A stretch of 49,310 nucleotides of DNA from Candidatus Altiarchaeota archaeon (GTDB lineage: Archaea > Altiarchaeota > Altiarchaeia > IMC4 > QMZM01): NCBI GenBank assembly GCA_038891095.1, contig JAWAEV010000006.1, positions 1 through 49,310 on the forward strand. Direction: 5' to 3'. This document shows, piece by piece, positions 7,175-25,721 of this stretch. The stretch's first letter is position 1; every line of letters begins with the position of its first letter. The notes beneath the pieces are model-generated. The model was not told the origin of the DNA, did no database searches, and saw only the letters and a program-made list of their open reading frames with translations. The position numbers were made by a program, and so were the translations under genes.

Positions 7175-8090
7175 CTTTCAAAATTTGAGTCCCCGCTTCT
7201 CCTTTAAGTGCTTTTTTAATTTCATTTAAATGGCATATTATTGCTCTTTTACCATTACCTTCTAAAAAATTTATAGCTGCTTGAATTTTTGGTTTCATTG
7301 AGCCTTCAGAAAAGTGACCTTCTTGCAAATAACGCTTAGCTTCCTCTAAGGAAATTTTCTTAAGCTCTTTCTGATTTTCTTTTCCATAATTAATGCATGC
7401 ATATTTTACATCTGTTGCAATTAAAAGAATGTCAGCGTTTATATCTTGGGCTAATTTTGCACTTGCTAAATCTTTATCAATAACAGCTTCAATACCTTCA
7501 AATTTTCTATGCTCCTTTGTTACAGGGATGCCGCCACCACCACAAGCAATTACTATTATTCCAGAATTTAACATTGCTAAAATTTCATTCTTTTCAACAA
7601 TTTTCAATGGCAAAGGACTTGGAACAACTTTCCTATAACCCTTCTCAGTTTTTACAAAACCGGGCTTTTTTTCACTGAAAGTTGGGCCAATTGGTTTAGT
7701 TGGTCTTCTAAAAGCAGGATCATTTTCATCAACTTGAACATATGTTAACATAGTAGCTATCAACGGATTTTCTATACCCAAATTCATAAATTCATTGTCA
7801 AGAGAAACTTCGATCATATAACCAATTTGTCCTTGAGTCATTGCAACTAAAATTTCTAAAGGCATCTTTGGAATTTTTTTACTTTCACACTTCTCTTGCA
7901 TTAGTAGGAGATTTCCAACTTGTGGGCCATTACCATGAGTTATAACTATGCTATATTTTCCTTCAGAGAAAATTTCAACTATTTGTTTTGCAGGAATTTT
8001 CAAATTTTCAAGTTGCTCCTGAATAGTGCCTAATTGACCTTTTTTAATTAGTGCATTTCCACCAAGAGCAATAACCAACTTTTCTTTCAT
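7164..8090 (-). CDS. arcC: Carbamate kinase
   Basis: ALGGNAL, THGNGPQVG, PTKPIGP, GGGGIPV, EAVIDKD, GSMKPK. Confidence 0.96.
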   Translation of the reverse strand: MKEKLVIALGGNALIKKGQLGTIQEQLENLKIPAKQIVEIFSEGKYSIVITHGNGPQVGNLLLMQEKCESKKIPKMPLEILVAMTQGQIGYMIEVSLDNEFMNLGIENPLIATMLTYVQVDENDPAFRRPTKPIGPTFSEKKPGFVKTEKGYRKVVPSPLPLKIVEKNEILAMLNSGIIVIACGGGGIPVTKEHRKFEGIEAVIDKDLASAKLAQDINADILLIATDVKYACINYGKENQKELKKISLEEAKRYLQEGHFSEGSMKPKIQAAINFLEGNGKRAIICHLNEIKKALKGEAGTQILKDET

Positions 8091-9025
8091 AATCTTCCAA
8101 GAAGAAATAGCATTATAGCCTTTTGAATATGTAAACGATTTTCAGCCTGCTCAAAAATTATTGAATTTTTATGCTCAATTGCATCTCTTGTTATTTCATA
8201 ACCAACATGACATGGCATACAATGCATTATTTTAGCTTTAGGACAATATTTTTCTACAAGCTTTGAATTTAATTGATATGGTTTGAAAATTTTTACCCTT
8301 CTTTCATATTCTTTCTGATATTCCTTTTTTACCTTTCCATTTTCAAAGAATTCCATATCAAGCCATGTATCAGTATGCACATATTCTACATCTTTTAAAC
8401 CTTCCTCTAAATTCAAAGTTTTTTTGATCAAACCTGTTTCCTCTGCCATTCTATCTAATTCAGGATCAACACTTGGCTTATGAACTTCTGGTGTTATCAT
8501 TACAACTTCTATCCCCAATTTTGCACAAGCTAATTTTAATGTGTTAGAGACATTATTGCCTATGCCAAGCCATGCAATCTTCTTTATATTCTCAATTCCC
8601 TTAGAGAATTCTGCCATTGTTAGAATGTCTCCCAAAGCCTGACATGGATGGTATTTCTCACTGCAAGCATCAATCACAGGAATTCTATTAAATGAAGAAG
8701 CTAATATAACATCATCAGCCTTTAATGCTCTAAACATTAAAATATCACCAAAACGCATTATTGCTCTTATCTCATCTTTAAAGTCAGATAATGAAATTTG
8801 TGTTGTTCTCATATCTAAAAAAATTCCATGACCGCCAAGCTGAGTCATTGCAGCTTCAAAAGAGAGTCTTGTTCTTGTTGAAGTTTTTTGGAAGAGCATT
8901 ATAAGAGTTTTATTTTTTAAAGCATCAGAGTATCTCTCAGGATTTTTTTTAATTTCAATCGCTTTATTAACAACCTTTCTTATTTCATCAGCACTCCAGT
9001 CCTTTAAAGATATCAGATGTTTCAT
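8087..9025 (-). CDS. argF: Ornithine carbamoyltransferase-family transcarbamylase (divergent)
   Basis: STRTR, HPCQ, HCMP, QAENR; the SMG loop is replaced (DTWLDMEF), so substrate is not certain. Confidence 0.8.
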   Translation of the reverse strand: MKHLISLKDWSADEIRKVVNKAIEIKKNPERYSDALKNKTLIMLFQKTSTRTRLSFEAAMTQLGGHGIFLDMRTTQISLSDFKDEIRAIMRFGDILMFRALKADDVILASSFNRIPVIDACSEKYHPCQALGDILTMAEFSKGIENIKKIAWLGIGNNVSNTLKLACAKLGIEVVMITPEVHKPSVDPELDRMAEETGLIKKTLNLEEGLKDVEYVHTDTWLDMEFFENGKVKKEYQKEYERRVKIFKPYQLNSKLVEKYCPKAKIMHCMPCHVGYEITRDAIEHKNSIIFEQAENRLHIQKAIMLFLLGRL

Positions 9026-9095
9026 TTTTCCATAATAAATTAAATTTGTAAGATAAATATTACATCACTTTAAAGAATTTTAATTTATCTGGGAT

Positions 9096-10082
9096 TTAAA
9101 ATTTGATCATCTCTCCAAAAAATGTGTCAAGGAGATAACTTCCAAGTAAAAATAAACCTATTGAGAAAAAAAGCAAAATTGGTAAAAATTTAAATCCAGA
9201 TTTCTCATCTCCTTTTAGAATTAAACCCATTATTAGAGCCCCAAAAATTGAAGTTGATGTCAATGAAACCAAAGCAAAAGTTTTTATAAAGTCTATGCTT
9301 ATTTTTATTGTGCCAACTTTTATTGGTATTCCTTGCATTTCTTGCAATTGTGGCAGCTCAGCAGAGATAACCGACATATTCTCGACAAGCATTTTCACAA
9401 GGAAGGATGACATTGCGAAAAGCAATGGTGCTCCAAATGCAATTGCTATAAATATGAAGAGAACATACATCAAAACACTTGCAGAAATTTCTCTCTGAAT
9501 CATTTGTTGTTCTCTCAGATCAGAGGCAATTTGGTCGAGAATATCAGCAAGTTTACCACCTGAGCGAATGCTAACATTCACTAAATCAATAGTTTTTGAT
9601 AATGTTTCTGATTTTATTGATTCAGTCATCCTATTTAATGAATCAGTTAAACTTCTCCCAGTCATCGTTTCTTTACCAACTCTTTTTATCTCTAAAGCTA
9701 AAGGACCAAATTCCGGTCTTGCTGATAAAAGTAAAGCTCTGTCAGTTGTTAAACCAGCTCTTATATTAGAGGACATTAGTTGGAGAGCATCAGGAAGGAC
9801 ACTTTCAACAAATCTTGCTTTTGAATCTATTGATAAAAGAATCCAAATATAGATTATAAATTGAAAAACAATGAAAAATAAAATAAATGAAAGAACTAAT
9901 GGTAATACCTTGAGTGTATATGTAAGATAACTTGCTAATGCAGAAAAGATAATTCCGAATATAAATGCAAACCCCAATAACTTCTCAGGATTTATATCTA
10001 TATTTGAGTACCTAACTAACTGATAAAAATTTTTTGTTATTCTCTTCGGTAAAATTCTTCCTATGGAAGTATAAATATCCAT
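9096..10082 (-). CDS. Type II/IV secretion F-family (TadC-like) membrane platform protein
   Basis: LPDALQLMSSNIRAG...EFGPL...SGG-x-LAD-x-L T2SSF pattern; multiple TMs. Confidence 0.9.
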   Translation of the reverse strand: MDIYTSIGRILPKRITKNFYQLVRYSNIDINPEKLLGFAFIFGIIFSALASYLTYTLKVLPLVLSFILFFIVFQFIIYIWILLSIDSKARFVESVLPDALQLMSSNIRAGLTTDRALLLSARPEFGPLALEIKRVGKETMTGRSLTDSLNRMTESIKSETLSKTIDLVNVSIRSGGKLADILDQIASDLREQQMIQREISASVLMYVLFIFIAIAFGAPLLFAMSSFLVKMLVENMSVISAELPQLQEMQGIPIKVGTIKISIDFIKTFALVSLTSTSIFGALIMGLILKGDEKSGFKFLPILLFFSIGLFLLGSYLLDTFFGEMIKF

Positions 10083-10083
10083 T

Positions 10084-10980
10084 TTACATTAAATTTGGTC
10101 TTCTTGTTTTTATTATTGACATGAACATAAATTGCATAAATAGCACAGCAGCTAGTAAAATCCAAAATGTTTGTTCATTGCTAATTGCTTCCATTCCGGG
10201 AAATGATGAAAGAATTATCATAACAGTTATTCCCAAGGAAGGAGCTATAACTGCGATCATCATATACATCATTGCTAAAGGATTTAAAATTGATTGATAT
10301 CTCCTTATCTGAACAATTTGCTCTCTTGAAAGAGATTGAATTACATTTGATAAATTTTCTGCGACATCACTTCCAGACTTTAGAGCATTGACAAGTTGCC
10401 AAAGAGCTCTCCTAAAATAAATTGATGGATTTCTTACTGCAATCTCTTCTAAAGTATCAATAACCGATGCTCCAGATTCAACTTTTTCAACAACATATCT
10501 AAATTCATCTGAAATTTGGCCGTAATTTCCTTTAGAAACGGAAACCATTGCATTGAAAATCGGCACTCCTGAACGAATTTGAATTAAAATATTCCTTAGA
10601 GCAAAAAGTAAATTTCTTTCTAAGTCACGAACTCTCCTATCAATTAAAACTTTTGGATAAGAAAGCAATTCAAAATAAACTAAGAAGCCAACACCTAAGC
10701 CAATTAATGGGCCTAAAATTAGCATAGAGCTGCCACCTATATAAAGGATCAAAGTTAGGCCGATGGTAAGAATTATTGCAATTATGCAACCCAAAAGAAA
10801 GCAAAATGCTATATATTCTCTTGCTGAAATTTCATACTCCTCAGAAAGACCAGATTGCCTTAACTGAATTGAAATATATGGCGAAACCTTAAGCATCGAA
10901 TCTCCAAACGGAATAAAAAATTTTGAAATTTCTCTCAATGGCCCCTTTCTAAGGAGCGGCATCTTCTCCTTTTTTGCCAT
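10084..10980 (-). CDS. Type II/IV secretion F-family (TadB/TadC-like) membrane platform protein
   Basis: RSGVP-x-FNAM...YG-x-IS-x-EF...SG T2SSF pattern; tandem with second platform gene. Confidence 0.9.
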   Translation of the reverse strand: MAKKEKMPLLRKGPLREISKFFIPFGDSMLKVSPYISIQLRQSGLSEEYEISAREYIAFCFLLGCIIAIILTIGLTLILYIGGSSMLILGPLIGLGVGFLVYFELLSYPKVLIDRRVRDLERNLLFALRNILIQIRSGVPIFNAMVSVSKGNYGQISDEFRYVVEKVESGASVIDTLEEIAVRNPSIYFRRALWQLVNALKSGSDVAENLSNVIQSLSREQIVQIRRYQSILNPLAMMYMMIAVIAPSLGITVMIILSSFPGMEAISNEQTFWILLAAVLFMQFMFMSIIKTRRPNLM

Positions 10981-10995
10981 TTTTCCTTTATTTAA

Positions 10996-11230
10996 TTACT
11001 TTTTATAACCTAAGAATCTTTCTTTTTCTAGTTTTTGTTCCAATTCTTTAACTCTAAGTTCTAACTCCTCAAACTCTTTCTTTGATCCTTTAAAATTTCT
11101 ACCAAGTAAGAAATCACTGGTACTCTATGGTATCAGGTAACCTCTCTCTATTATAGCCAACTAATCCCCTAAGTTGCAGTTTATCAAAATTTTTTGCTAA
11201 AAAAGACAAAAATTTTATTAAATTTTTCAT
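10996..11230 (-). pseudogene. Frameshifted remnant resembling a peptidase S74 / intramolecular chaperone C-terminus
   Basis: Three frames stitch to FLAKNFDKLQLRGLVGYNRERLPDTIEY / ISYLVEILKDQ / KKEFEELELRVKELEQKLEKE; family call from recalled similarity, not a search. Confidence 0.55.
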
Positions 11231-11259
11231 ATATTTAGATTTTATGCAATCTTAAGCTT

Positions 11260-12918
11260 TTACGCCACCCTCAAAGCGAATATCCTTGCATTTCTTATAT
11301 ATGCAGTGTAACTACTACTGTAAGAGTGATATTGTATTGCAATTGTTGCACTTCCTGAGATTGTATAAGGAACAACCCATGACTGAGTATTTGCATAGGT
11401 ATTCGCAGTATGAACACTTGGTCTTAATTCACCACCAAGTGTGACACCATTCGTCAGGTCCACTAAGCTAACATATGGGAAATATGATGCTGAGGTCGAG
11501 CTACCAGTAACTTCACATGATGCAATTATTATATAAGTTCCAGCACTTGGTAATGTCAATGAGACTTTAGTTTGATAAGAAGTAGAAGTGGTACTACTCT
11601 GAGCGTCACTAACACTATAAAATGTGGCACCTTTCAATCCGCCATTGCTTATGCTAAGATTACCATCAACTACTAACTTCTCAGTTGGACTTGTAGTTCC
11701 GATGCCGACATTGCCGGTAACCCTTGCAATTGCTATTCCTTGTTTTTCTACGCTGTTTTGAAGAGTATTAAGATAAAGAACATCAGGCCCAGCATCGTAT
11801 CCTACGATTCCTCCATAAGCGTTGTTTCCACCCTCCCTAAAGAATATCCTTACCTTCTTAGTCCAGTCTGGTTCGTCAATTGTGATGCCTTGTCCATCTG
11901 TTAGACCAGAGATGTGTAATTTATTAACTGGATCTGTCGTCCCGATGCCGACGTTGCCGTTACCATCGATTCTCATCTTCTCACCACCTGCACCATTATA
12001 ACCGGCGCTAAATGTTAAAACACTTCCTCCTACTCCTCCTTGAATTAGATAACCTCCCACATTGTGTTGAGCGAGAGATAGACCTCCATATCCAGACCAA
12101 GCAAAAATCCCTAAACGTTGATTTCCAGTATTATAAGATACGCCATTGTTCCACTTTGGACCAATCATTGTGACAATACAATCGCCGCTAGCACATCCTT
12201 GGTCAACTTGAAGATGAGCGCCAGGCGCTATCGTCCCAATGCCGACATTGCCAGCTGAATCTATGGTTAATCTACTGACTTTATTTGTCGCAAAACTCAA
12301 TGGGTGAGCGGTGTGCGTTCCAATAATCATCCCTGCTGGAGCACCCCACCATCCGGAATCATGAGCTAACACACGAGCATCTATGTTAGGAGTTCTAATT
12401 GATAATTTTGTAGCTCCTCCACCAAAAATATCTAAAACCTTACTCCAACCCTCTGCGTTTTCAGGTGTAGTTGTCCCAATGCCGACATTACCATTACTGT
12501 AATTAATGCAAAATTTTGAGGAACACTCTAAGCGAGATGTCATATATGTATACCCAGAACTTGCAACCCTTTGTCTTGGGGAGAGAACTTCATCTTTCAC
12601 TTGGATTTCAAGCCAATAATCTTCTGTAAAATTTAAATCCAAAGGATTAATACTACCTAAGAGAACACTGAAAATTCCTGTGTTGGAAGTTGTGATATTG
12701 TTAACTCCTGAATGTTCTTCCTTCCAAAGTGGATTTCCTCCAGTTGGAGAATTGTAAATTGTAAAGGTCATATTAAAGTTTCCATATAGTGGTATTCCCT
12801 CAGAATTTGTTAATTTTCCTTCAAGATTTATCAACTTTGGGATTGCAAATACATTAACAACAAAAAAGTTAAAAAAAACAGAAATCATAATCAAGTAGTA
12901 TAGGTTTCTCATTTTCAT
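11260..12918 (-). CDS. Secreted tail-fibre-like adhesin 1 (conserved N-domain, 4 GNVGIGT repeats, unique C-terminal beta-rich tip)
   Basis: Signal peptide ending VFA; IPKLINLEGKLT N-domain; GNVGIGT x4; start set to ATG 12918, 8 nt after GAGGTGA. Confidence 0.8.
   Translation of the reverse strand: MKMRNLYYLIMISVFFNFFVVNVFAIPKLINLEGKLTNSEGIPLYGNFNMTFTIYNSPTGGNPLWKEEHSGVNNITTSNTGIFSVLLGSINPLDLNFTEDYWLEIQVKDEVLSPRQRVASSGYTYMTSRLECSSKFCINYSNGNVGIGTTTPENAEGWSKVLDIFGGGATKLSIRTPNIDARVLAHDSGWWGAPAGMIIGTHTAHPLSFATNKVSRLTIDSAGNVGIGTIAPGAHLQVDQGCASGDCIVTMIGPKWNNGVSYNTGNQRLGIFAWSGYGGLSLAQHNVGGYLIQGGVGGSVLTFSAGYNGAGGEKMRIDGNGNVGIGTTDPVNKLHISGLTDGQGITIDEPDWTKKVRIFFREGGNNAYGGIVGYDAGPDVLYLNTLQNSVEKQGIAIARVTGNVGIGTTSPTEKLVVDGNLSISNGGLKGATFYSVSDAQSSTTSTSYQTKVSLTLPSAGTYIIIASCEVTGSSTSASYFPYVSLVDLTNGVTLGGELRPSVHTANTYANTQSWVVPYTISGSATIAIQYHSYSSSYTAYIRNARIFALRVA
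11695..12492 (-). repeat. Four dispersed 21 bp GC-rich repeats encoding GNVGIGT (11695-11715, 11938-11958, 12232-12252, 12472-12492)
   Basis: Read directly; coding-strand consensus GGYAAYGTCGGCATYGGRACN. Confidence 0.9.
12463..12847. repeat. Direct repeat copy 1 (385 bp, fibre N-domain); copy 2 at 20896-21280
   Basis: Ungapped alignment at offset 8433, including a 98 bp perfectly identical block (12524-12621 = 20957-21054). Confidence 0.95.
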
Positions 12919-12971
12919 CTTTTCTTTCACCTCTTAATTTTATATTAAATTTATATTTCTCAAATAAAAAC

Positions 12972-14513
12972 TCACCCCAATAATTTTTTTGGTGACACTT
13001 CTCTTTTTACAGCATTTTCAACTGTTTTAGTATCTCTATAGTAAATATTTAATATTTTTCCAACATCCTCTATTTGCCTTACATTGTTTTTTAGCATCCA
13101 TTCTAAAATACTTTTCTTTAATTTAATTTCATCTTCAATTTCTTCTTGAGTTAAACCAGTATGGGTCCCTATTTTTTCATAGAGGGATGCTGAGGTTTTT
13201 GTTCTTTCTATGCTGTCATCTCTTGCATTCCATTTATAAAGAATATTTGGAATAAATTTTATCTTCTCAGAATTTGGATCCTGAACAAATTCTCCAATTT
13301 CATAAACTCTTCTTATGCCTCGCCTTCTGTCACGAAACATAACGACATTTAGATGAACAGCATCAAGCATTGATTCTGGTATGTCTATTGGTGGATTTGT
13401 AAGCCTTGTTATTGTTTGAGCGCAAGTATCTGCATGTAATGTTGCATAGACTGAATGCCCAGTATGCATTGCCTCAAATAAAACTTCTGCCTCTCTTTTC
13501 TTTCTAATTTCACCCATTATTATTCTATCAGGCCTCATTCTTAAAGAATTTACAAGAAGGTCAAGCATACTAACTTCTCCTTTGCCTTCAGGGTTTGGTT
13601 GCCTTGTTGTTAGAGGACACCAATATAAGTATTGAGGCAATTGTAATTCTCTTGTATCCTCTATTGATATGATTCTATGATTTGGCGGTATGAAAGGCAT
13701 GCATATATTTAGAAATGAAGTTTTTCCAGAGCCTGTGCCACCAGAAATTAAAATATTCATCTCATATTGTATAGTGAGCCAAATTAGGGCCATTATTTCA
13801 GAGTTAGCAGTTTTGTTCTGTATAAAATCTGTTACTGTCCAAGGATCACGAGCAAATTTTCTTATTGTTATAGTGTTGCCCTTTGTTGCAATTGGCGAGA
13901 TGATAGCATTTGCTCTATCCTTAGTTATAAGGTGTGCATCTAACAAAGGATTTAGAGTTGTTATTTCTCTGCCAACTCTTCTGGCAATAGTATTCGCATA
14001 ATTCTGAATTTGCGCTTCTGAATCTGGAGTTATATTTGTTGCGATCCAACCATATCTCTTATGATAAACTCTTATCGGCTCTTTTGCTGAATTAACAACA
14101 ACTTCTTCAATTGATGGGTCATTGAGGAAGAACTCTATTTTCCCTAATCCAAGAAGCTCATTCAATAAATTAAGAATAAAATTTTCTTTTATTTTTTTAT
14201 CTAATTCAGGAAGTTCACTATCTAAGAGAAATTCAGCATCTTTCTTAAATTCTTCTTTTAACTTATTCATAACTTCTGGCTCAAATATTTCAGAGGTAAT
14301 TTCGATTTTTCCTATAAGTCTTTCTTTTATGCTATCAAGTAATGCTCCCGTAGCAGTATCAACTTCAGGAATTAAAATTCTATATAAAGGTACATGGTCT
14401 TTCTCAACTATTTCAACCTTTGTTTTTATTCCTTCAGAGTCAATTTCATAAGTTTCTAAAATTTTTTCCTTCCTTTCCAAAATTTCCTTTTTAATTTCTG
14501 ATAAATTTTTCAT
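12972..14513 (-). CDS. Type IV pilus / secretion ATPase (TadA/CpaF/VirB11 family)
   Basis: Walker A GGTGSGKT, SIEDTREL, LRMRPDRIIMGEIR, MHTGH...TLHA; ATG 14513 preferred over TTG 14531. Confidence 0.95.
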   Translation of the reverse strand: MKNLSEIKKEILERKEKILETYEIDSEGIKTKVEIVEKDHVPLYRILIPEVDTATGALLDSIKERLIGKIEITSEIFEPEVMNKLKEEFKKDAEFLLDSELPELDKKIKENFILNLLNELLGLGKIEFFLNDPSIEEVVVNSAKEPIRVYHKRYGWIATNITPDSEAQIQNYANTIARRVGREITTLNPLLDAHLITKDRANAIISPIATKGNTITIRKFARDPWTVTDFIQNKTANSEIMALIWLTIQYEMNILISGGTGSGKTSFLNICMPFIPPNHRIISIEDTRELQLPQYLYWCPLTTRQPNPEGKGEVSMLDLLVNSLRMRPDRIIMGEIRKKREAEVLFEAMHTGHSVYATLHADTCAQTITRLTNPPIDIPESMLDAVHLNVVMFRDRRRGIRRVYEIGEFVQDPNSEKIKFIPNILYKWNARDDSIERTKTSASLYEKIGTHTGLTQEEIEDEIKLKKSILEWMLKNNVRQIEDVGKILNIYYRDTKTVENAVKREVSPKKLLG

Positions 14514-14514
14514 T

Positions 14515-15450
14515 TTAATCTTTCTTTTCAATTATTCTCATTTCAGGTTCACCAATTGCTGGATAGTGCAACTCTATAAGGTTATGCTCTTCAAGAATTA
14601 CAGCCCAACTTTCAATTTGTGCTTTACTGACATTTAATTTTTTTGCAAGTGAGTCATTCAGCTTTACAATTTTATTCTTTTTCACTAAATCATAGAGTTC
14701 ATCTATTTTTGTTTTTACTTTTCCTTCAGTTTTTTTCTCCAAAGGAGTTTTTGGTTCACTCCAAAATTTTGACAATCTTTGGGCAATTTCCTGATCAATA
14801 ACCCATCTCCTTTTTCTTAATTTTTCTAATAAACTTTGCTTTTTTTCTGAACTAATTGATGAAATTCCCTCAAAAATTTTTGGAATTTCTCTTTCTGATA
14901 TGTGCAAGCCAACTAATGAGTCACTTGATATTCCTCCTTTTTCTATCTCGTTCCTTACCTCTTCAAAGTGTTTTCCTATACTCACTTCTTTTGCCTTCTT
15001 TTTCATTGGCTCTTGGAATGAAATCGTTCCAAAAAAATTTCTCTCACCAGACTTCTCCTCTTTTATAACTCTCGAGCTTATTGGCTTAATCTTCATGCCG
15101 AGACTCTCTATTGGGATCTCTTTTAGAATTGCTCTAAAATTTTCTTTTTTTATTTTTTCAAGTTCTTCCTCACTAAGTTGGTAGAGGTCTAATCTTCCAG
15201 CTGATTTTACAAATTCTTCTCTTATTTTTTTAATAGCATTTTCTCCAAGATAAAGTTCTGCCTTTTCCAAATTTTCACATGTCGCTGCAATTATTTTGCC
15301 TTTATTGATTAAAAGGATTGCCTCATAGAAATCCCCAGAAATTTTTCCGAAAAGCCTCATTGCTCCAGTGAAGCTATTAAGAGAACTGCAAATTTTATAG
15401 AATTCCTTATCATCTTTTGGTGTTATATGTCTACCAATAATTAAATCCAT
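14515..15450 (-). CDS. Cytoplasmic protein with DUF2226-like N-domain and C-terminal winged-helix-like domain
   Basis: FTG-x-x-R...G-x-IIAA...G-x-x-A N-domain; KTKIDELYDLVK...IESWAVILEEHNLIELHYP C-domain; family names from recall. Confidence 0.55.
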   Translation of the reverse strand: MDLIIGRHITPKDDKEFYKICSSLNSFTGAMRLFGKISGDFYEAILLINKGKIIAATCENLEKAELYLGENAIKKIREEFVKSAGRLDLYQLSEEELEKIKKENFRAILKEIPIESLGMKIKPISSRVIKEEKSGERNFFGTISFQEPMKKKAKEVSIGKHFEEVRNEIEKGGISSDSLVGLHISEREIPKIFEGISSISSEKKQSLLEKLRKRRWVIDQEIAQRLSKFWSEPKTPLEKKTEGKVKTKIDELYDLVKKNKIVKLNDSLAKKLNVSKAQIESWAVILEEHNLIELHYPAIGEPEMRIIEKKD

Positions 15451-15532
15451 CTTTGTAATGTTAAGAATTATGTATAGAAGACTTATAAAGATTTAGCTTT
15501 TTATTTTTGAACTATTTGGAAATTACAATAAA

Positions 15533-16405
15533 TCAGCAATCAGGGTCGTTACAATAACAATTTTTACAGAAATCTCTTGGACAAATACCATCAATTGAGC
15601 CACAAAAATATAAGCTACTACAAATTTGAACAGCACTAATGCTTTGTAGTGTTGTTGTAGTAGTAGTTGTAGTAGTAGTTGTTGTCGTAGTTGTAGTAGT
15701 GGTAATAGTTGTAGTAATTTGTGTTGTAGTTGTTGTTGTAGTAGTAGTTGGTACAACACAATGTGTGTTCCCAGGTCCTTCACAACATTCTGAGCAATCT
15801 GCTGCAGGTAATTTAAATCCTTCAGCACAAACCTTCGGAGGTGAGCAACAATGACCTTGCTTTGGAGTTCCAGAATACCAATCAGCACAATTTTTTATTG
15901 TTGGAGTTTTCTCTGAGTATGCACCATAAATCATTCCTTGTTCAATTCTTTCTATAGGAACATTTGCTATTTGACCAATGTAAGAAATAGTAATCCTAAG
16001 GTTATATGTTTCTCCCGGGAAATGTTCTCTTGAGCAGCATTTAGATTGTTTCACATGTATTGTATCACCAGAGAAGTGTTGTCCTTCACCTTCCACCTTA
16101 TCTTGGCATTTCCATGAATCTTGCATGTTATAAATTTCTATGTTAGTTATATTTATCGTATACCCTGCACCATTCACAAAAATTCCACTAAAATTGCAAT
16201 CAGTTGTTAGAACAATACTTGGATTTAATGGTTTTATCATTGAAAACCCGGAAACAGTTACTGTGCTTTCATGTCTTGTTGTAAAAATTCCAAGATACCA
16301 CATTGATGCTATTATTGCTACTATAGCTATAATTGCCCATCCATAATTAAGAAGATATTCTGCTGCTCCTTGTGCTTTCTGAACTTTATATTTTTTATTT
16401 TTCAA
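15533..16405 (-). CDS. Class III signal peptide (type IV pilin-like) protein with Cys-rich domains and Thr-rich linker
   Basis: Basic leader, then KAQGAAEYLLNYGWAIIAIVAII; TTG start. Confidence 0.85.
   Translation of the reverse strand: MKNKKYKVQKAQGAAEYLLNYGWAIIAIVAIIASMWYLGIFTTRHESTVTVSGFSMIKPLNPSIVLTTDCNFSGIFVNGAGYTINITNIEIYNMQDSWKCQDKVEGEGQHFSGDTIHVKQSKCCSREHFPGETYNLRITISYIGQIANVPIERIEQGMIYGAYSEKTPTIKNCADWYSGTPKQGHCCSPPKVCAEGFKLPAADCSECCEGPGNTHCVVPTTTTTTTTTQITTTITTTTTTTTTTTTTTTTTTLQSISAVQICSSLYFCGSIDGICPRDFCKNCYCNDPDC
15649..15749. repeat. Imperfect (ACA/ACT)n trinucleotide tract encoding a poly-Thr linker
   Basis: GTT/GTA triplet run on + strand; over 30 codons, almost all Thr, in the pilin ORF. 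Confidence 0.92.
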
Positions 16406-16412
16406 TTTATGA

Positions 16413-16904
16413 TTAAATTACTTGTGTTTGCATTACAACACCACTACAACAAGCTTGATCATAATAACCAACACCACTATCCCTAACTTGATGGGAGCCT
16501 TTTGTAACCCAACCAACACAATTTGAGCAAGGTCCACCTAAAACGCATGCTCCTGGACTTCCACCACCTGTTGTTACTGTTAAAGGAAGCCATATATCTC
16601 CTCTTCTTTGCCAAGTTCCTGTTGGAGAAGCATCATAAGCATTATTTATCTTAAATGTTACAGTATCGCCATTATTACCTTCATAAACATAAACTCTATA
16701 ATAGCCAACTGCAATCATGCCACCTTCAGTTCTCACAGGATTACCATTGATATAAGCAACAATATTTGTCCCTAATGGGGCTGATTGACCATCAATATGC
16801 AAAGAACCATAAAATTTACATGCATCCTCTGGTATCAGCTGTGCAAAAACAAGATAGATTAATATTGCTAAAATTGCTGAAAATACAATTATAACTTTTT
16901 TCAT
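16413..16904 (-). CDS. Small secreted protein with FYG...DG..AP.GT domain and Cys-rich tail
   Basis: Signal peptide ending VFA; domain paralogous to the middle of the upstream 883 aa protein. Confidence 0.75.
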   Translation of the reverse strand: MKKVIIVFSAILAILIYLVFAQLIPEDACKFYGSLHIDGQSAPLGTNIVAYINGNPVRTEGGMIAVGYYRVYVYEGNNGDTVTFKINNAYDASPTGTWQRRGDIWLPLTVTTGGGSPGACVLGGPCSNCVGWVTKGSHQVRDSGVGYYDQACCSGVVMQTQVI

Positions 16905-16908
16905 TTTG

Positions 16909-19560
16909 TTATGTCATTAAATTTAAGGGAATTGAAATTAAATTCCAACCTTGTTGTAATGGTATTGTATAGCTTATTTGCAAGTTCTCTCCACCAATCT
17001 TGAAATAACTTAAGTGGGATAAATTTGCCCATACAAAATTTTCTTCTGTATTAACACCAGTGCCATAGACCCAATCCCAAGTCTCATCTAATGCAATCCA
17101 TTCAGCTAATGATTCATTAAACCAATAAAATCTTAGTGACGATTCATTTAAATTTTTTGCAGAAATTTCCTCATCTGTATAATAAACTTTTAGCATAAAA
17201 GATGATAGGGTTGCATTCAATTCAGGTGAGATATCAACCCTCATATATTCTCTAATTCCAGGTATAGCAAAAGAAGCCTCAGTTGGGTTTTCTGTAAATA
17301 GAGTTAAATTTATATTTGCATCTGTTATATTTTCTAAAGGCAATATTTCAAAGATTATATTGGCTTCTGATAAATTAATTAAATTTGTATAGTTTGCTGT
17401 TAAATTTTCAAATCTTTCTATTAATTTTCCAACTATAATTTTTTGAGATGTAGTCTGTGTTTTATTATAACCATCATATGCAAGGAAGTAAAACGAATAT
17501 ACTCCCTGGGACAATGTTTTATTATAGAAATATTCTTTCCCATCTTTTACATCATTATCTTCAATATCCAACTCATACATCTGATAGCTATATGTAACAT
17601 TTTCTGAATTTACAAGAGTTAAATTTACATATTCTGGAGTATCATTATCGTAATCAATATAAACTACTGAAAAGTTGTAGGTATCAAAATTATTACCAAT
17701 TTTTTGGCTGACTTGGGCATTAGTTAAAATTGGAAGTAGATTGAATATTGCTGGTCCTGTTTGTAAGGGAGTTTCAGTAATATTAAAGTTATCATATGCA
17801 GAGAATTTATATGTATGTTGCCCCATTGAAAATCCACTTAAATTATAAGTGAAAAGTCTCCCATTAACCTTTAATTCATCTTGTAGAGTTGCATTCGAGT
17901 AATTCCCAAACATTTTATAACTGACATTATCAACTGTTAAATTTACCCAAATTGGAGCATCATTATCAATATCTTTGTAAAAAACTGAAAAAGTGAAAGT
18001 TGATGATCTGTTGCCAAATTCATTGCTGAGAGAGTAATTTGTTAAAAGAGCTAAATTGTTACAATTTGTGCAAAATATGTCAAGTTGCTGTCTTCCATGA
18101 TTAAAGAAATTCCAGAAGGTTCCATTATTTGCTGTAAAGTTATTAATTTTAAAAATTATTTTATCTCCGTCATTTCCATCATAAACTTTCATACCTATCC
18201 CTTCGTTTCCATACTCGCCAATTTTAGTTGAAATATTATACTCAACAGGATACTCTTGTCCAGAAATTTTAAATGCTCTTATTTTAGTTCCAATTGGTGC
18301 TGGTTTTCCATCTCTTGTAAGATTTCCAAAGAAAACTGCAGGAGGTTTAGCTTGTGAAATTTCATGCTCAGAGACTGATTTACCACCGAATATATGCTCA
18401 TTTGCTGTAAAATTATAAATTAAAGTGCAAGTTTCATTTATATAAATTTCATAGCCTACGCCAGGTTCTAATTGCTTTATATCCCACAAATATTCCGGGA
18501 GCTTAGAATCTGCAGATTGTCCTAACCACCCTGTTATATTGCCAGAAAGTGTAGTGCAGTATGGATTACAATATCTCCAAATGCTTTTCCATTTACCGCT
18601 AATTGATGATAATACTATGCTTAAATTTTGTGGATAGTCATAAAGATAAGGAATAATATTCCAACCAAGAGTTAGCGGAATTTCAACAGTCCTATTTTTT
18701 ACACTATCTTGATAGCTTACACCTTCTATTTCTAAAGTGTCATTCTCCTTCATTTTAATCCAGTAGCCCAGTGTAAAATTTATGTCATCAAAATCTGAGC
18801 CGAATGGAGCAGCAAATAACCATTTAGTTCCATTATTTATGTAAGTTGCTAAGAAACTCCAATTCTCATAAACAGATGAAGTAAAGGATTTATAACTTTT
18901 ATTTATTAGCATTAATGGCGAGGATATCAAAGACCAGTTATAAGTGACATTTATTCCTGAAGTTAAATTTATCCCATAGTTTCTCAAGGGTAAAACCTCA
19001 AATTCAACGATCTCTGAGGTAATAGAATTTTCTGATGGTGGAATTGAGAGAGAGGTTATATCTAAAGCTGTGCAATTTTCATAATATAAGCCTAAAGGCC
19101 ATGTTGAAATATCAGTAAAATTCAAAACATTATAAGCTGTATAATAGGTTAAATCCCATGATTTACTTAAGTAGATATCATTTGTTGAATTATAAACTGT
19201 GCAGTTTAGATAATATAAATTCGTATCTAATGCACTGATATTCTCATTAAGCCATTTTGCAACTAAAGTTGAGTTATCTTGCGATGGTTGGATAAAGTTA
19301 ATCCTTGGTTTATCAGTGTCAATATCCTTTAAAAAAAATCCAAGATAAACTTTAAAATTATTTGAAGAGGAATTTCCAATTATTGTTTCGGCAAGTGTTA
19401 TATAACTCTGATGAGTTATGGAAGAGGAGTTCTCACCACCAGAATCTAAAATAGCAGAAATTTTATAGTTTGAACTCTCCATTGAAGAGGAGGACATTAA
19501 GCTTAGTCCTATATCCAAGAATAATAAAAAAAATAATGAAAAGATAGCTCCTTTTTTCAT
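16909..19560 (-). CDS. Large secreted surface glycoprotein (GWN-type repeats, paired Ig-like repeats, PGF-pre-PGF-like C-domain)
   Basis: Signal peptide; very dense N-x-S/T sequons; two FSVxYxDxDNDxPxxVNLT repeats; LTLGWNII and LQQGWNLIS motifs. Confidence 0.78.
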   Translation of the reverse strand: MKKGAIFSLFFLLFLDIGLSLMSSSSMESSNYKISAILDSGGENSSSITHQSYITLAETIIGNSSSNNFKVYLGFFLKDIDTDKPRINFIQPSQDNSTLVAKWLNENISALDTNLYYLNCTVYNSTNDIYLSKSWDLTYYTAYNVLNFTDISTWPLGLYYENCTALDITSLSIPPSENSITSEIVEFEVLPLRNYGINLTSGINVTYNWSLISSPLMLINKSYKSFTSSVYENWSFLATYINNGTKWLFAAPFGSDFDDINFTLGYWIKMKENDTLEIEGVSYQDSVKNRTVEIPLTLGWNIIPYLYDYPQNLSIVLSSISGKWKSIWRYCNPYCTTLSGNITGWLGQSADSKLPEYLWDIKQLEPGVGYEIYINETCTLIYNFTANEHIFGGKSVSEHEISQAKPPAVFFGNLTRDGKPAPIGTKIRAFKISGQEYPVEYNISTKIGEYGNEGIGMKVYDGNDGDKIIFKINNFTANNGTFWNFFNHGRQQLDIFCTNCNNLALLTNYSLSNEFGNRSSTFTFSVFYKDIDNDAPIWVNLTVDNVSYKMFGNYSNATLQDELKVNGRLFTYNLSGFSMGQHTYKFSAYDNFNITETPLQTGPAIFNLLPILTNAQVSQKIGNNFDTYNFSVVYIDYDNDTPEYVNLTLVNSENVTYSYQMYELDIEDNDVKDGKEYFYNKTLSQGVYSFYFLAYDGYNKTQTTSQKIIVGKLIERFENLTANYTNLINLSEANIIFEILPLENITDANINLTLFTENPTEASFAIPGIREYMRVDISPELNATLSSFMLKVYYTDEEISAKNLNESSLRFYWFNESLAEWIALDETWDWVYGTGVNTEENFVWANLSHLSYFKIGGENLQISYTIPLQQGWNLISIPLNLMT

Positions 19561-19593
19561 TTTTCCTTCCTATCGTTGCATTTTTTCTTTATT

Positions 19594-21351
19594 TTAACAT
19601 TTATAACAATAAATTTCTTTGTTGCCAAGGACATTTTTACAACTTGTGGCACTCCATCCAGAAGGACAAGTTGGACAAGAATCCCTATTACGAAGATTTA
19701 TAGTTTGGCATGCTATATCAGTTCTATAGCAAGTTAATTCCAAAAGCATATTTCCTGCCTGGGTTACATTATAACAATTGTGTGAATTCCAGCCACTTGG
19801 GCAAGTATTGGTGCAAGAAACCGGGGGAATTTTATAACAAGCTCCTGAGTAATATTGATAGCTACTATAAACACCATAAGCTCTTTCATTAGCTCTCCAC
19901 CTTGTATATCCAGAGGGACAAGTTACAGAGTCAGGAGAACTATATGCTTTCCATGTGAAAACATCATTAACTGCAGAAGGATTATAACAAGCACCAGTAT
20001 AAGCACTATCCCCAGAAGAACTTGAATAATAATAAGCATTAGAATTCCACCATCTTACATAACCAGCAGGGCAATTTATATATGAATTCGGCGAATAACT
20101 TGTGTATAATTCCCAAGTGAAAGAACGAAGGTCTGGAAAATCTTCTCTCAAAATCATAACGCTATTACCTGGCTTACTTCCAACTAAGTCAACATATGCA
20201 TTAGAATTCTCAGAAACTTTAAATTTATTTGTTGTTGAATCAAAGTATATCCTACCTTGGCCTGATGGAGCAGTCGAAGGAGTTGATATGCCTCTAAAAC
20301 TGAGAGCACCATTTAAATCCAAAGCAGTGTTCGGGCTCGTCGTCCCGATGCCGACATTGCCGGTTCCATCAATTACAACTACACTGGGGGAGGTTGTAGT
20401 ATTTTTTAAAATTGCAAACCTTCTTAAAGCTCCGCCCCCAGGTGGGTATTCCCAGAATTCAACACTATTAGGTGCAACACCATAGCCTCCGCCTATAGGA
20501 GCAGTATACATTTTCCATGTGTGTCTATTGCCTCCGGTATCCCTACTAGTAAGTGTTAACGATACCAAGCCTTGAGTTGTATCATCTGCGGGGAAAATAT
20601 TAAGTTTTATATTCCCTCCAGAAACCAACTCAAGTTTCTCTGCAGGCGCTATCGTCCCGATGCCAACATTGCCGGTCATATACACAGTTGAAGCTTCTAA
20701 TTTTAATCTATCATCAGCATCGTTTTGAATTCTTACATTATAATCTTGAGCCGTTCCTTTGCCATAATGGAAATCAATATAAGGAACCTTACCAGAACTT
20801 AAAGAATTGCCTAATTCAATTGAACCATCTTGATCAAGAGCAAGATAAGAATACCCCCACTTTATTGGACCACCTTGGACATCTAACTTCGCTGTAGGTG
20901 TAGTTGTCCCAATGCCAACATTACCATTACTGTAATTAATGCAAAACATTGAAGAGCACTCTAAGCGAGATGTCATATATGTATACCCAGAACTTGCAAC
21001 CCTTTGTCTTGGGGAGAGAACTTCATCTTTCACTTGGATTTCAAGCCAATAATCCTCTGTAAAGTTCAAGTTAAGCTCTGTTATACTACCTAAGAGAACA
21101 CTGAAAATTCCTGTGTTGGAAGTTGTAACATTATTTAAATCTTCATGTTTTTCTTCCCAAAGTAAAGTCCCTCCAGAAGCAGCATTGTAAATCCTGAAAG
21201 TCATATTAAAGTTTCCATATAGTGGTATCCCCTCAGAATTTGTTAATTTTCCTTCAAGATTTATCAACTTTGGAATTGCAGATGCGGTAATAACAAAACA
21301 AAACAAAAAAACTAAAAAAGCCCAAAATTTTAATTTTATTATATTCTTCAT
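19594..21351 (-). CDS. Secreted tail-fibre-like adhesin 2 (same N-domain, 3 GNVGIGT repeats, Cys-rich CPxG[YW] tip)
   Basis: Signal peptide ending ASA; N-domain near-identical to adhesin 1; four CP[AS]G[YW] motifs. Confidence 0.8.
   Translation of the reverse strand: MKNIIKLKFWAFLVFLFCFVITASAIPKLINLEGKLTNSEGIPLYGNFNMTFRIYNAASGGTLLWEEKHEDLNNVTTSNTGIFSVLLGSITELNLNFTEDYWLEIQVKDEVLSPRQRVASSGYTYMTSRLECSSMFCINYSNGNVGIGTTTPTAKLDVQGGPIKWGYSYLALDQDGSIELGNSLSSGKVPYIDFHYGKGTAQDYNVRIQNDADDRLKLEASTVYMTGNVGIGTIAPAEKLELVSGGNIKLNIFPADDTTQGLVSLTLTSRDTGGNRHTWKMYTAPIGGGYGVAPNSVEFWEYPPGGGALRRFAILKNTTTSPSVVVIDGTGNVGIGTTSPNTALDLNGALSFRGISTPSTAPSGQGRIYFDSTTNKFKVSENSNAYVDLVGSKPGNSVMILREDFPDLRSFTWELYTSYSPNSYINCPAGYVRWWNSNAYYYSSSSGDSAYTGACYNPSAVNDVFTWKAYSSPDSVTCPSGYTRWRANERAYGVYSSYQYYSGACYKIPPVSCTNTCPSGWNSHNCYNVTQAGNMLLELTCYRTDIACQTINLRNRDSCPTCPSGWSATSCKNVLGNKEIYCYKC
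20341..20925 (-). repeat. Three dispersed 21 bp GC-rich repeats encoding GNVGIGT (20341-20361, 20653-20673, 20905-20925)
   Basis: Read directly; GGCAATGTCGGCATCGGGACG, GGCAATGTTGGCATCGGGACG, GGTAATGTTGGCATTGGGACA. Confidence 0.9.
20896..21280. repeat. Direct repeat copy 2 (385 bp, fibre N-domain)
   Basis: Aligns to 12463-12847 without gaps. Confidence 0.95.
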
Positions 21352-21425
21352 TTTAAATTTTTAGGATATTTCGTATAATAATTACTTTTTTATTTTAAAA
21401 AGTCTTCTGAGAAATGTTTTAATTG

Positions 21426-21857
21426 TCATATAGCCATTTCAAGAATTTCAAATTTCTTAAGAATTTCTCTGCTTTTTGGATCATAAAGAATTAGCAGAGT
21501 TGTTTTATTTTCATTGATAAATTCTATTTTGTATATTGGTGCTTTTATTTTGCCATAGATAACTGGCTGTTTTTGTGATAAGTCATTTAGCTCCTCTTGA
21601 TTTAAAATAGTTATTTTAAAACTTTGGTTAAGATAATTTTCCAACTCTGAAAAATTTTCTTTAATTTTCTCTTTAATTTCTTGAATTTGGGTTTCAGCTA
21701 TTATGGTAGAAGTGTTCTCCTTAGATATCTTCACTTCATAAATTTCCTGAATTAATAATCTATTTTTTATGAGCAATACTAAGATAGCAAGAGTTAATAT
21801 AATTAGCAATACTTTGTAATAACTTTCAGACATTTTTTTTGTTTTGGCTCTTTTCAT
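21426..21857 (-). CDS. Hypothetical protein with N-terminal membrane anchor
   Basis: 143 aa ORF with single hydrophobic helix (VLLIILTLAILVLLI). Confidence 0.7.
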   Translation of the reverse strand: MKRAKTKKMSESYYKVLLIILTLAILVLLIKNRLLIQEIYEVKISKENTSTIIAETQIQEIKEKIKENFSELENYLNQSFKITILNQEELNDLSQKQPVIYGKIKAPIYKIEFINENKTTLLILYDPKSREILKKFEILEMAI

Positions 21858-21903
21858 TTTGGTTGATTATTATATTTTTAAACTCTTATGTAAATAGAAT
21901 AAC

Positions 21904-22092
21904 ATGCTCAGGGATATAGATGTCCTTTATGATACTGAAAAGAAGCAATATATTATCATTTCTGAAGGCTATAAATTAATCCTAAATGAGGAAGATTTTA
22001 AAGCAATAAGTCGCTCATTGAATGGAATTTCCTATGCCTTAAGTTTAAAGAGGAAACAATTGCAAGAGCAAGCAAAGTCTGAAGTAAAATAA
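21904..22092 (+). CDS. Small hypothetical protein
   Basis: 62 aa ATG ORF filling the gap, normal composition. Confidence 0.6.
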   Translation: MLRDIDVLYDTEKKQYIIISEGYKLILNEEDFKAISRSLNGISYALSLKRKQLQEQAKSEVK

Positions 22093-22113
22093 ATTTTTTA
22101 TTTTTTCTAAATT

Positions 22114-22127
22114 AACTTTATAAAGTT
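22114..22127 (+). promoter_or_regulatory. Probable TATA box of pyrBI, within a perfect 14 bp palindrome AACTTTATAAAGTT
   Basis: TTTATAAA at 22117-22124, ending about 25 nt before the ATG at 22150, consistent with an archaeal promoter and very short leader. Confidence 0.5.
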
Positions 22128-22149
22128 TCTTGCATAATTATTATAAAAA

Positions 22150-23079
22150 ATGGTTAAGTGGGATAAAAACCATATAATTTCTATAAGAGACTTTTCAAGA
22201 GAGGAAATTGACTATATTCTCGAAAAATCCTATTTAATGGAAAAGAAAATTTCTCATGGAAAAGCCTCCTCTTTAATGAAAAACAAAATTCTTGGTATTC
22301 TATTTTTTGAGCCATCTACAAGGACGAGAATGTCATTTGAAGCTGCAATGAAAATTCTTGGTGGAACTACAATTGGCTTTGACTCTTCTTTAGCAACATC
22401 AGAAGTTAAAGGTGAGACAATTGCTGATACTATAAAAATTGTATCCTCATATACTGATATTATTGTTATGCGGCATCCTGTTGAAGGTTCTGCGAGACTT
22501 GCAACAGAATTTTCAGAAGTGCCAATAATTAATGGTGGTGATGGTTCCAATCAACATCCAACACAAACACTTTTGGATTTATACACAATAAAGAAAAAAT
22601 TTAAAAGGATAGATGGCCTAACTATAGCAATGGTCGGAGATTTAAAATATGGTAGAACCGTTCATTCATTAACAGATGGTTTAATGAATTATAATGATAT
22701 TTCTCTGAGGTTAATTTCCCCACCGGATTTAAGAATGCCTGATAGAATTTTAAGAGAGCTGAAAGAAAAGAAAATAAAAGTTTCTGAAACATCAAAATTA
22801 AATTTAAAGGATTGTGATGTTATTTATGCAACGAGAATTCAAAGGGAGAGATTTCCAGATCCGCAAGAATATGAGAGAGTTAAAGATGCTTATGTTCTTG
22901 ACATAAGAATTTTGGATGATTTAAAGGAAGATGCGATAATAATGCATCCTTTGCCGAGAGTTTCTGAAATTTCTCCTGAATTAGATAAAACAAAATTTGC
23001 ATTTTATTTCGAACAAGCTAAGAATGGAATTCCTGTAAGGGCTACCTTGCTGTGTTTAGTTTCAGGAGTAAAATTCTAA
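22150..23079 (+). CDS. pyrB: Aspartate carbamoyltransferase catalytic subunit
   Basis: FFEPSTRT, HPTQTLLD, GDLKYGRTVHS, TRIQRERF, MHPLPR. Confidence 0.98.
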   Translation: MVKWDKNHIISIRDFSREEIDYILEKSYLMEKKISHGKASSLMKNKILGILFFEPSTRTRMSFEAAMKILGGTTIGFDSSLATSEVKGETIADTIKIVSSYTDIIVMRHPVEGSARLATEFSEVPIINGGDGSNQHPTQTLLDLYTIKKKFKRIDGLTIAMVGDLKYGRTVHSLTDGLMNYNDISLRLISPPDLRMPDRILRELKEKKIKVSETSKLNLKDCDVIYATRIQRERFPDPQEYERVKDAYVLDIRILDDLKEDAIIMHPLPRVSEISPELDKTKFAFYFEQAKNGIPVRATLLCLVSGVKF

Positions 23080-25638: not shown

Positions 25639-25721
25639 TTTGGAATGGAAAAGTATATATAGGATAAAGAGAGATATATAAAAGAATATATAAAAGAAAA
25701 GATATGGGAGGATATTTAAAA

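Follow-up and report, generated by a model that had tools for sequence, protein, structure and literature searches.

MAT-like fibre proteins in a type IV pilus-like operon of an altiarchaeal genome: probably accessory, strain-variable adhesins

What are proteins built like phage tail fibres doing inside a pilus operon? The question is raised by a ten-gene locus in the genome of a Candidatus Altiarchaeota archaeon. The window considered here, that is, the whole stretch of DNA that was analysed, is 49,310 nucleotides long and makes up the entire contig C6 of genome G000 (958,546 bp, 15 contigs, 93.65% complete); sequencing runs containing this DNA are labelled hot springs metagenome. The ten genes all read in one direction on the minus strand, from 21857 down to 9096 (Table 1). 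They encode a pilus-type ATPase and two TadC platform proteins, a pilin-like protein, several other secreted or anchored proteins and two fibres, of which fibre 1 lies between the ATPase gene and the first platform gene, TadC1, and fibre 2 lies near the start of the locus. A preliminary description of the same DNA had given the gene order as it is given here, and had proposed an undescribed archaeal system for displaying fibres on a pilus. The answer developed below is a different one: the fibres are an archaeal variant of a known fibre family, the mosaic adhesive trimer (MAT) adhesins with which the predatory bacterium Bdellovibrio bacteriovorus grips its prey, and are probably accessory adhesins that vary between strains within a conserved pilus-operon adhesion island, not structural parts of the pilus.

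The two fibres resemble each other (45% identity over 422 aa), with the first ~150 residues nearly identical, and carry four (fibre 1) and three (fibre 2) GNVGIGT repeats. Each has a single hydrophobic segment, at the N-terminus, followed by VFA/ASA and then by IP; this pattern fits a Sec signal peptide and no membrane anchor, as the preliminary description had it. In fibre 2 the N-domain occupies residues ~25-140 and the tip ~395-585, with CPSGW/Y repeats in the tip and 17 Cys in the protein as a whole. The N-domain is matched by the NCBIfam profile NF053851 (Bdello_MAT_N) at 5.2e-6 in fibre 1 (26.3 bits) and 1.9e-7 in fibre 2 (31 bits), both scores being short of the curated cut-off; the same profile matches 17 of the 18 proteins found by the N-domain alone, the best of them at 8e-11. 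A phmmer search of the PDB with fibre 1 finds Bd2133 (8ond) at 5.9e-10, 8oml at 6.4e-6, 8ojn at 1.5e-5, and 8ol4; at E<=0.01 the sequence matches in that database are essentially only Bdellovibrio MAT fibres. Foldseek, given the fibre 1 model, has Bd2133 (2.6e-9), Bd2439 (3.5e-5) and Bd3182 among its top nine rows.

The MAT family provides the plan against which the window fibres can be read. According to Caulton 2024 (PMC10769870), all 21 MATs have a beta-rich domain of ~130 aa right behind the signal peptide; the shaft is trimeric; the tips are swapped, and are TNF-like in Bd2439 and Bd2734. The window fibres repeat the layout of the MATs of non-S74 type (Bd2133, Bd2439, Bd2734): signal peptide, beta-rich N-domain of ~120-130 aa, repeat shaft, variable tip. 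They also repeat the family's habit of keeping a common N-domain among paralogues with differing, swapped tips. Neither fibre matches the S74 domain (PF13884) at E<=0.1 in Pfam, and both would therefore be of the non-S74 type; the domain is present in one of the 18 N-domain relatives, and many database relatives of fibre 2 have it, unlike the window fibres. A predicted signal peptide with a beta-rich N-domain, a shaft homologous to solved MAT shafts (phmmer, Foldseek) and tips that vary, are exchanged and fold independently (TNF-like in fibre 1; unrelated and Cys-rich in fibre 2) put the pair within the MAT superfamily of Bdellovibrio or immediately beside it. The word 'undescribed' is then not supported, as the fibres match a family that already has a name; for MAT-type fibres in archaea no paper was found in the literature search, supplements lying outside it. 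The archaeal variant differs from its models in several respects. The archaeal host has no outer membrane, and its genome has two copies, both at this locus, instead of 21; the fibres lie inside a pilus-motor operon, one of them as a strain-level insertion; their N-domain is below the NCBIfam cut-off; and fibre 2 has a Cys-rich tip for which no counterpart was found.

When an intertwined fibre is modelled as a monomer, poor pLDDT in the shaft is to be expected. The AlphaFold2 monomer model of fibre 1 has a mean pLDDT of 69, with values of 90-98 in the N-domain and 75-87 in the tip. It places a beta-rich domain at residues 31-122; its tip, residues 432-556, is predicted to fold as a TNF/C1q-type jelly roll, with a VIA Z of 10.7 to the TNF-like lectin PLTL (rmsd 2.6, 117 aligned) and of 7.7 to the tip of Bd2734, the second value lying within the range that the tool calls common. 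For the fibre 2 tip no relative or fold was found, and a structure-atlas search gave no usable match. Modelled alone (pLDDT 69), the N-domain is a generic beta-sandwich: its best VIA Z is 6.6, and an archaeal pilin, at Z 6.3, ranks level with unrelated rows.

Tips appear to move between these genes. P0003 is a near-identical fibre protein of 907 aa, with the NCBI source name 'Candidatus Altiarchaeota archaeon' (a metagenome-assembled genome); it combines the N-domain of fibre 2 (98% identity), a differing middle and the tip of fibre 1 (128/150 identical, 85%). Such a chimera implies that tips are shuffled between fibre genes, and it supports the preliminary description in regarding the fibres as tail-fibre-like adhesins that share an N-domain and whose tips can be exchanged. 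The 5' DNA of the two fibre genes in the window consists, from the first mature codon on, of near-identical blocks broken by divergent patches; their promoter and signal-peptide regions are unrelated. The pattern fits duplication followed by gene conversion.

The position of fibre 1 is itself variable. Contigs of four runs from one study (X1-X4) were placed on window positions 8000-23000. In X2, X3 and X4 a joint leads from 10983 directly to 12972, skipping 1,988 bp; it is absent from X1, the likely source of the window. The X2 joint lies in a 6,394-bp contig (depth 10.3) whose shorter side measures 255 nt; that contig has 28 differences from the window over 8000-10983 and 16 over 12972-15751. 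The joints of X3 and X4 have 46 and 79 nt on the shorter side. In all three samples the contigs without fibre 1 are ~99% identical to the window, and in these sister strains TadC1 starts 3 nt after the ATPase stop codon, as it does in relatives. Fibre 1 and its spacer are thus a recent strain-specific insertion, and a fibre that arrived in this way makes the fibres look like exchangeable add-on adhesins, not built-in pilus parts.

The insert comprises a leader of 41 nt that contains a TATA-like box, the gene of fibre 1, and 276 nt of the 279-nt spacer lying between that gene and TadC1. Oligo-T runs follow the fibre 1 stop codon, and a TATA-like 'ggttataaaaag' stands ~28 nt before the TadC1 ATG; leader, T-rich end and TATA-like element are candidate promoters and a candidate terminator. 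A scan for bacterial-type signals, with a model ill-suited to an archaeon, gave 67 promoter-like sites against 58.6 expected and one terminator-like site against 6.3. At the ends of the insert there is no target duplication and no terminal inverted repeat. The spacer contains short stop-to-stop frames only; one of them, of 42 codons (10996-11124, minus strand), ends in a coiled-coil-like peptide (…KKEFEELELRVKELEQKLEKERFLGYKK) and may be a gene remnant brought by the cassette. Beyond the joint, the X2 strain retains the genes for the pilin, the 163-aa protein and the 883-aa protein (15724-19482, 57 differences), together with the fibre 2 N-domain region and the 143-aa gene (20906-23000); no long X2 contig covers the shaft and tip of fibre 2 (19483-20905), and neither presence nor absence is deduced for them. 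Short joints from 11958 to ~20332, with 20-26 nt on the shorter side, were taken as cross-matches between GNVGIGT-coding repeats and set aside as not being real junctions.

Relatives show what the operon looks like elsewhere. ATPase orthologues (64-74% identity) occur in ~40 of the order's 48 other genomes; 24 orthologous ATPase loci were fetched and tallied, with homologues called by phmmer at 1e-5. TadC1, whose orthologues are 54-62% identical, directly follows the ATPase in 12 of the 24, and in five more an opposite-strand KaiC-like gene alone separates the two; in the other seven the ATPase has no adjoining TadC. The statement that the two genes are normally adjacent is thus correct in part. 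A DUF2226 homologue is present in 21 of the 24 (under that name the literature search found no paper). TadC2 orthologues are 48-62% identical, and an OTC-like gene, the next gene in the window, lies within 1-3 genes beyond TadC2 in the closest relatives. By contrast, the window's cargo (both fibres, the 883-aa, 163-aa and 143-aa proteins and the 290-aa pilin) has no homologue at any of the 24 loci. The preliminary description had proposed synteny in relatives as a check; a fibre between ATPase and TadC is found in 0/24 orthologous loci, and this, with the three samples whose contigs pass straight across the junction, speaks against a built-in place for fibre 1. What does hold is that fibre 1 interrupts a junction which is normally tight, as both the contig joints and the relatives' loci attest.

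The remainder of the cargo is replaced as well. Upstream of DUF2226, relatives have a set of pilin-like proteins, one with a vWA domain and one with a CARDB domain; that is, their cargo upstream of DUF2226 and the ATPase is of the minor-pilin/vWA tip-adhesin kind (TadE/F/G-like). Unlike them, G000 has its vWA module on another contig (C4:8084-10777, 55-58% identical to the relatives' vWA proteins), and the set of fibre, glycoprotein and pilin takes its place here.

Whether the motor is a pilus motor can be judged from its parts. A PilB/FlaI-family ATPase and TadC/FlaJ platform proteins stand together (Pfam), which identifies the locus as one of archaeal type IV pilus (Tad-like) kind. The ATPase matches NCBIfam FlaI at 7.3e-86, yet its 289 bits lie below the 550-bit cut-off, so it does not qualify as the archaellum equivalog. 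No strong Pfam match to archaellum proteins was obtained among the ten proteins of the locus; the 143-aa protein matches NCBIfam flagellin weakly (E 0.071, 12.9 bits against a cut-off of 210). In the 290-aa pilin the motif KAQG/AAEYLL, found by regular expression and followed by a hydrophobic helix, marks a class III pilin with a predicted cleavage site. Its pilin domain runs to ~residue 165, and four pilin-like proteins, encoded in tandem next to a paralogous motor on contig C1, share 27-38% identity with it; behind the domain comes a unique extension of ~125 aa (Cys-rich, poly-Thr, Cys-rich), and the protein has 19 Cys in all. Over window positions 15650-15750, which encode the poly-Thr linker, insertions, small joints and additional letters are seen in contigs from the four runs, which suggests that this repeat varies in length between strains.

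According to Makarova 2016 (PMC4858521), extra adhesins are common in archaeal pilus loci, and the loci evolve in modular fashion. The window agrees with those loci in having an ATPase with two TadC proteins, a class III pilin, extra secreted proteins and exchange of cargo; the KaiC-like gene of such loci is found in the window's relatives. The adhesins treated there are pilin-like or PilY-like; those of the window are Sec-type, MAT-like fibres, one of which splits the ATPase-TadC pair.

Table 1. Features of the locus, in order of transcription
Feature	Position in window	Strand	Remarks
143-aa membrane-anchored small protein	21426..21857	-	one N-terminal hydrophobic segment, residues 9-39
Fibre 2, 585 aa	19594..21351	-	signal peptide, MAT-like N-domain, GNVGIGT shaft, Cys-rich tip
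883-aa secreted sequon-rich mosaic surface protein	16909..19560	-	
163-aa small secreted protein	16413..16904	-	N-terminal hydrophobic segment
290-aa type IV pilin-like protein	15533..16405	-	class III signal-peptide motif
DUF2226 protein, conserved upstream partner of ATPase	14515..15450	-	Pfam PF09987 2e-9
FlaI/PilB-family secretion ATPase	12972..14531	-	T2SSE 4.8e-35
Strain-specific insertion, 1,988 bp	10984..12971	not assigned	contig joint 10983->12972
Fibre 1, 556 aa (552 aa from ATG at 12918)	11260..12930	-	MAT-like N-domain, GNVGIGT shaft, TNF/C1q-like tip
Spacer fibre 1-TadC1, 279 nt	10981..11259	-	direct reading of sequence
TadC1 platform protein	10084..10980	-	T2SSF 1.8e-20
TadC2 platform protein	9096..10082	-	T2SSF 1.4e-17

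The 883-aa protein is rich in N-x-S/T sequons: it has 48, or 5.4 per 100 aa, where the 14 other proteins counted range from 0 to 2.8 per 100 aa. It has no Pfam match and no sequence match in the PDB. Its residues 410-474 form a 65-aa domain common to the 163-aa protein (BLASTP, 42% identity, E 4e-10); over residues ~500-700 a repeat occurs twice in tandem, and it recurs in up to 33 stretches in a protein of 6,784 aa; residues ~715-880 are a C-terminal module that also ends unrelated secreted proteins and enzymes, a subtilase for example. Relatives number 1,619 at E<=1e-3, some with FG-GAP or beta-helix domains. Read from its sequence, it is a mosaic of widespread surface-protein modules and not an evident dedicated scaffold. 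At ~100.6 kDa, with a pI of 4.5, Sec-type export and many sequons, it is like the hamus subunit of Altiarchaeum (97 kDa) in gross properties and unlike it in composition, a likeness drawn from the published description of that subunit (PMC4460559).

The 143-aa protein carries, in its C-terminal ~70 aa, the conserved domain of a small family whose members are repeatedly found next to large secreted proteins. Two paralogues (88 and 143 aa) lie in G000 between secreted proteins of 824, 722 and 955 aa (C13:5032-13525), and homologues are found in genomes G022 (locus L080) and G229 (locus L199); a gene of the family stands at just three of all the fibre loci fetched. The idea that it is a fibre-specific anchor was rejected, the paralogues on C13 adjoining other large secreted proteins.

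Insertion polymorphism, tip exchange and the swap of cargo argue together that the fibres are accessory, strain-variable adhesins, and this is the reading we favour as probable. On this account a conserved type IV pilus-like operon (DUF2226, ATPase, TadC1, TadC2) has had its usual cargo swapped for other surface proteins: the 143-aa protein, fibre 2, the 883-aa mosaic glycoprotein, the 163-aa protein and the pilin with its Cys-rich/poly-Thr extension. The fibres would be exported by Sec, not by the pilus motor; they would trimerise along the GNVGIGT shaft, and the beta-sandwich N-domain would hold them on some surface element; the variable tips would bind ligands on surfaces or partner cells, glycans being probable for the TNF-like tip. 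Fibre 1 is a recent arrival between the ATPase and TadC1 genes, brought in on a cassette of 1,988 bp that seems to be equipped with a promoter-like leader, a T-rich end and a further promoter-like element serving TadC. The two fibre genes exchange sequence over their N-domain parts, tips move between the fibre genes of related strains, and the fibres may cooperate with the pilus.

Several points weigh against this account. The Bdello_MAT_N scores, at 26-31 bits, miss the curated NCBIfam cut-off of 60, and MAT membership for that reason rests on E-values and architecture. The models are of monomers, with shaft pLDDT mostly <60, so that the trimeric state is an assumption. The host is without an outer membrane, and the account does not explain how an unanchored secreted fibre is retained on the cell. 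The evidence from the locus comes from DNA. No prepilin peptidase (Peptidase_A24) was found in the 93.65%-complete G000 with PF01478 and a relative's 295-aa peptidase as queries, which leaves it in question whether the locus motor builds any pilus; the enzyme is present in 19 of the 20 relatives searched, and G000 nonetheless has four T2SSE ATPases and seven pilin-like genes. Finally, fibres and pilus genes recur together in other archaea, at 12 of 60 loci of one phylum and at one further locus, L147, which is more than accidental neighbours would give and leaves room for real coupling.

That last point also favours the preliminary description's own proposal, a fibre-display system in which the common N-domain docks on the pilus, on the extended 290-aa pilin or on the 883-aa protein, and so furnishes a pilus with exchangeable tips. 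The fibres have no anchor of their own, their genes lie inside a pilus operon, and Caulton 2024 (PMC10769870) leaves the cell partner of the MAT N-domain unknown and mentions type IV pili as possibly of interest. Docking was looked at directly by a complex prediction of the fibre N-domain with the pilin (45-205), the 163-aa protein and the 143-aa ectodomain: its score of 0.32, against 0.38 when an unrelated protein replaced the pilin, is evidence neither way. The sister strain, however, has an intact motor operon without fibre 1.

The wider distribution of the family bears on the same proposal. A wide protein search with fibre 2 gave 1,819 relatives at E<=1e-5 among 8,000 scored, in many bacterial phyla and several DPANN archaea; a scan of metagenome contigs with fibre 2 gave 43 pattern matches, none of them confirmed. 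At 1e-6, fibre 2 matches five of 61 genomes of its own phylum. The N-domain has weak matches in 11 of 49 genomes of the order, and the ten contexts fetched for these contain neither pilus genes nor GNVGIGT repeats. When one genome per species was scanned with an 8-row alignment of the N-domain, 67 loci were obtained, 66 bacterial and one archaeal. Within the DNA fetched around them (up to 10 kb on each side, 866 kb for the 67), no pilus ATPase or TadC was found at any of the 66 bacterial loci, where N-domain homologues are 30-51% identical. An N-domain so conserved at pilus-free bacterial loci is unlikely to bind fast-evolving, lineage-specific archaeal pilins.

The archaeal locus of that scan, L147 (Candidatus Aenigmatarchaeota archaeon), is of another kind: its fibre gene faces, in convergent orientation, an operon with an ATPase, two TadC and six pilin-like genes, and further pilin genes lie on the fibre's other side. 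In the DPANN phylum of genome G061, fibre matches occur in 91 of 371 genomes, many of them in the N-domain at 40-47% identity. Around N-domain matches in this phylum 60 loci were fetched (693 kb in total, up to 10 kb on each side); 12 have a pilus ATPase and/or TadC, with an ATPase at ten. From the density of ATPases in ten fibre-bearing genomes (29 T2SSE matches in ~8.4 Mb, 3.5 per Mb), 2.4 would be expected, so that counted by loci the excess is marked (Poisson 2e-4); the 12 linked loci, however, come from ~five lineages, and counted by lineage the excess is not significant (Poisson P ~0.1). The linked lineages share an order on one strand, ATPase, (KaiC-like), TadC, TadC, a DNA-binding-like protein, pilin-like, fibre, the fibre being 7-10 kb away from the start of the ATPase; in L246 a gap of 8 bp separates the end of a pilin-like gene from the fibre gene. 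(The DNA-binding-like protein is so labelled by eye, without a significant Pfam match.) The other 48 loci have no pilus gene nearby. The linkage of fibres to pilus genes predicted by the fibre-display proposal thus recurs, going by these sequences, in small-genome archaea; it is not universal and not yet statistically secure. On balance we hold it unlikely that the N-domain docks on a pilus to give it exchangeable tips.

Some features of these loci are recorded for their own sake. In an AR5-like clade of the G061 phylum (L203, L211, L213, L222) a gene of ~60 aa lies immediately upstream of the fibre; its product looks by eye like a small DNA-binding protein, the L203 copy has no Pfam match, and it may be a dedicated fibre regulator. 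Loci of the L203 type have a KaiC-family gene between ATPase and TadC (Pfam 4.5e-65 in L203). At L165 (G061:C4, 13756-15392) the Aenigmatarchaeota fibre is read as two overlapping open reading frames of 373 and 192 aa, a split that may reflect a frameshift, an error in sequencing or a programmed event. In family f6 of the window's own order, weak N-domain homologues adjoin a conserved gene of ~188 aa (MVGAEPSF…) in four genomes (L076-L079).

Nor do the fibres have to be adhesins. They might be secreted lectins, free or bound to the envelope, that serve as envelope, matrix or competition factors and owe their place in a pilus locus to an accident of recombination. The recent, strain-specific arrival of fibre 1 would suit an accident; so would the neighbouring 883-aa protein with its generic surface modules, and the company that the 143-aa family keeps with other big secreted proteins of the genome. 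An accident sits less well with both genome copies being at one locus and with the recurrence of pilus-gene linkage in other small-genome archaea; moreover, the MAT homologues with solved tips are surface-displayed adhesins. We think such a role quite improbable.

That the fibres are the receptor-binding proteins of a virus or the parts of a tailocin, left behind by a mobile element, is far less probable still: their shaft repeats do match phage tail-fibre and tailspike families that have GNVGIGT-type repeats and an S74 intramolecular chaperone (PHROG 9942, 18345; 4.1e-20 and, for fibre 2, 2.2e-10), fibre 1 is present in some strains and absent from others, and the family is patchily spread over bacteria and archaea, but the 1,988-bp insert is a fibre gene and its spacer with no terminal repeats, no integrase, capsid, tail or other virion gene was noticed among the flanking open reading frames (read by eye, no virus-family scan being made), and the fibres have secretion signals and a cell-type MAT N-domain which is nearly absent from viruses (two weak loci in 2.9 million viral contigs; nothing at E<=0.001 in a viral structure library).

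Three further stretches of the window lie outside the locus. A second T2SSE-family ATPase (36242-37717, minus strand, 491 aa) is 38% identical to that of the locus; it has no TadC gene near, and its neighbours resemble housekeeping genes. An open reading frame of at least 1,660 aa (44329-49308, plus strand) runs off the end of the contig, and two signal-peptide proteins of 547 and 658 aa are encoded within 25704-29320; all three are candidates for large surface proteins.

Little is known of the means by which ultrasmall archaea recognise surfaces or partner cells and keep hold of them. If the fibres are what they seem, a structurally understood adhesin family of a bacterial predator is now placed in archaea, where it is common in one DPANN phylum. 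The MAT-like family has here been caught varying between co-occurring strains: gain and loss of a cassette, together with exchange of tips, is what one would expect of a specificity determinant. The TNF-like tip of fibre 1 and the shared N-domain are concrete reagents for the study of ligand specificity, and the archaeal fibres offer a tractable route to what the conserved MAT N-domain binds, a question left over from Bdellovibrio. A bolder extension, which is improbable at present, is that in small-genome, DPANN-type archaea the surface element that holds the MAT N-domain, still missing in Bdellovibrio, is the pilus apparatus or a pilin-like base built by it. Motor, pilin and fibres would then form one organ of host or surface recognition, with cassette insertion and recombination swapping its tips from strain to strain in the way that fibre 1 and the P0003 chimera illustrate.

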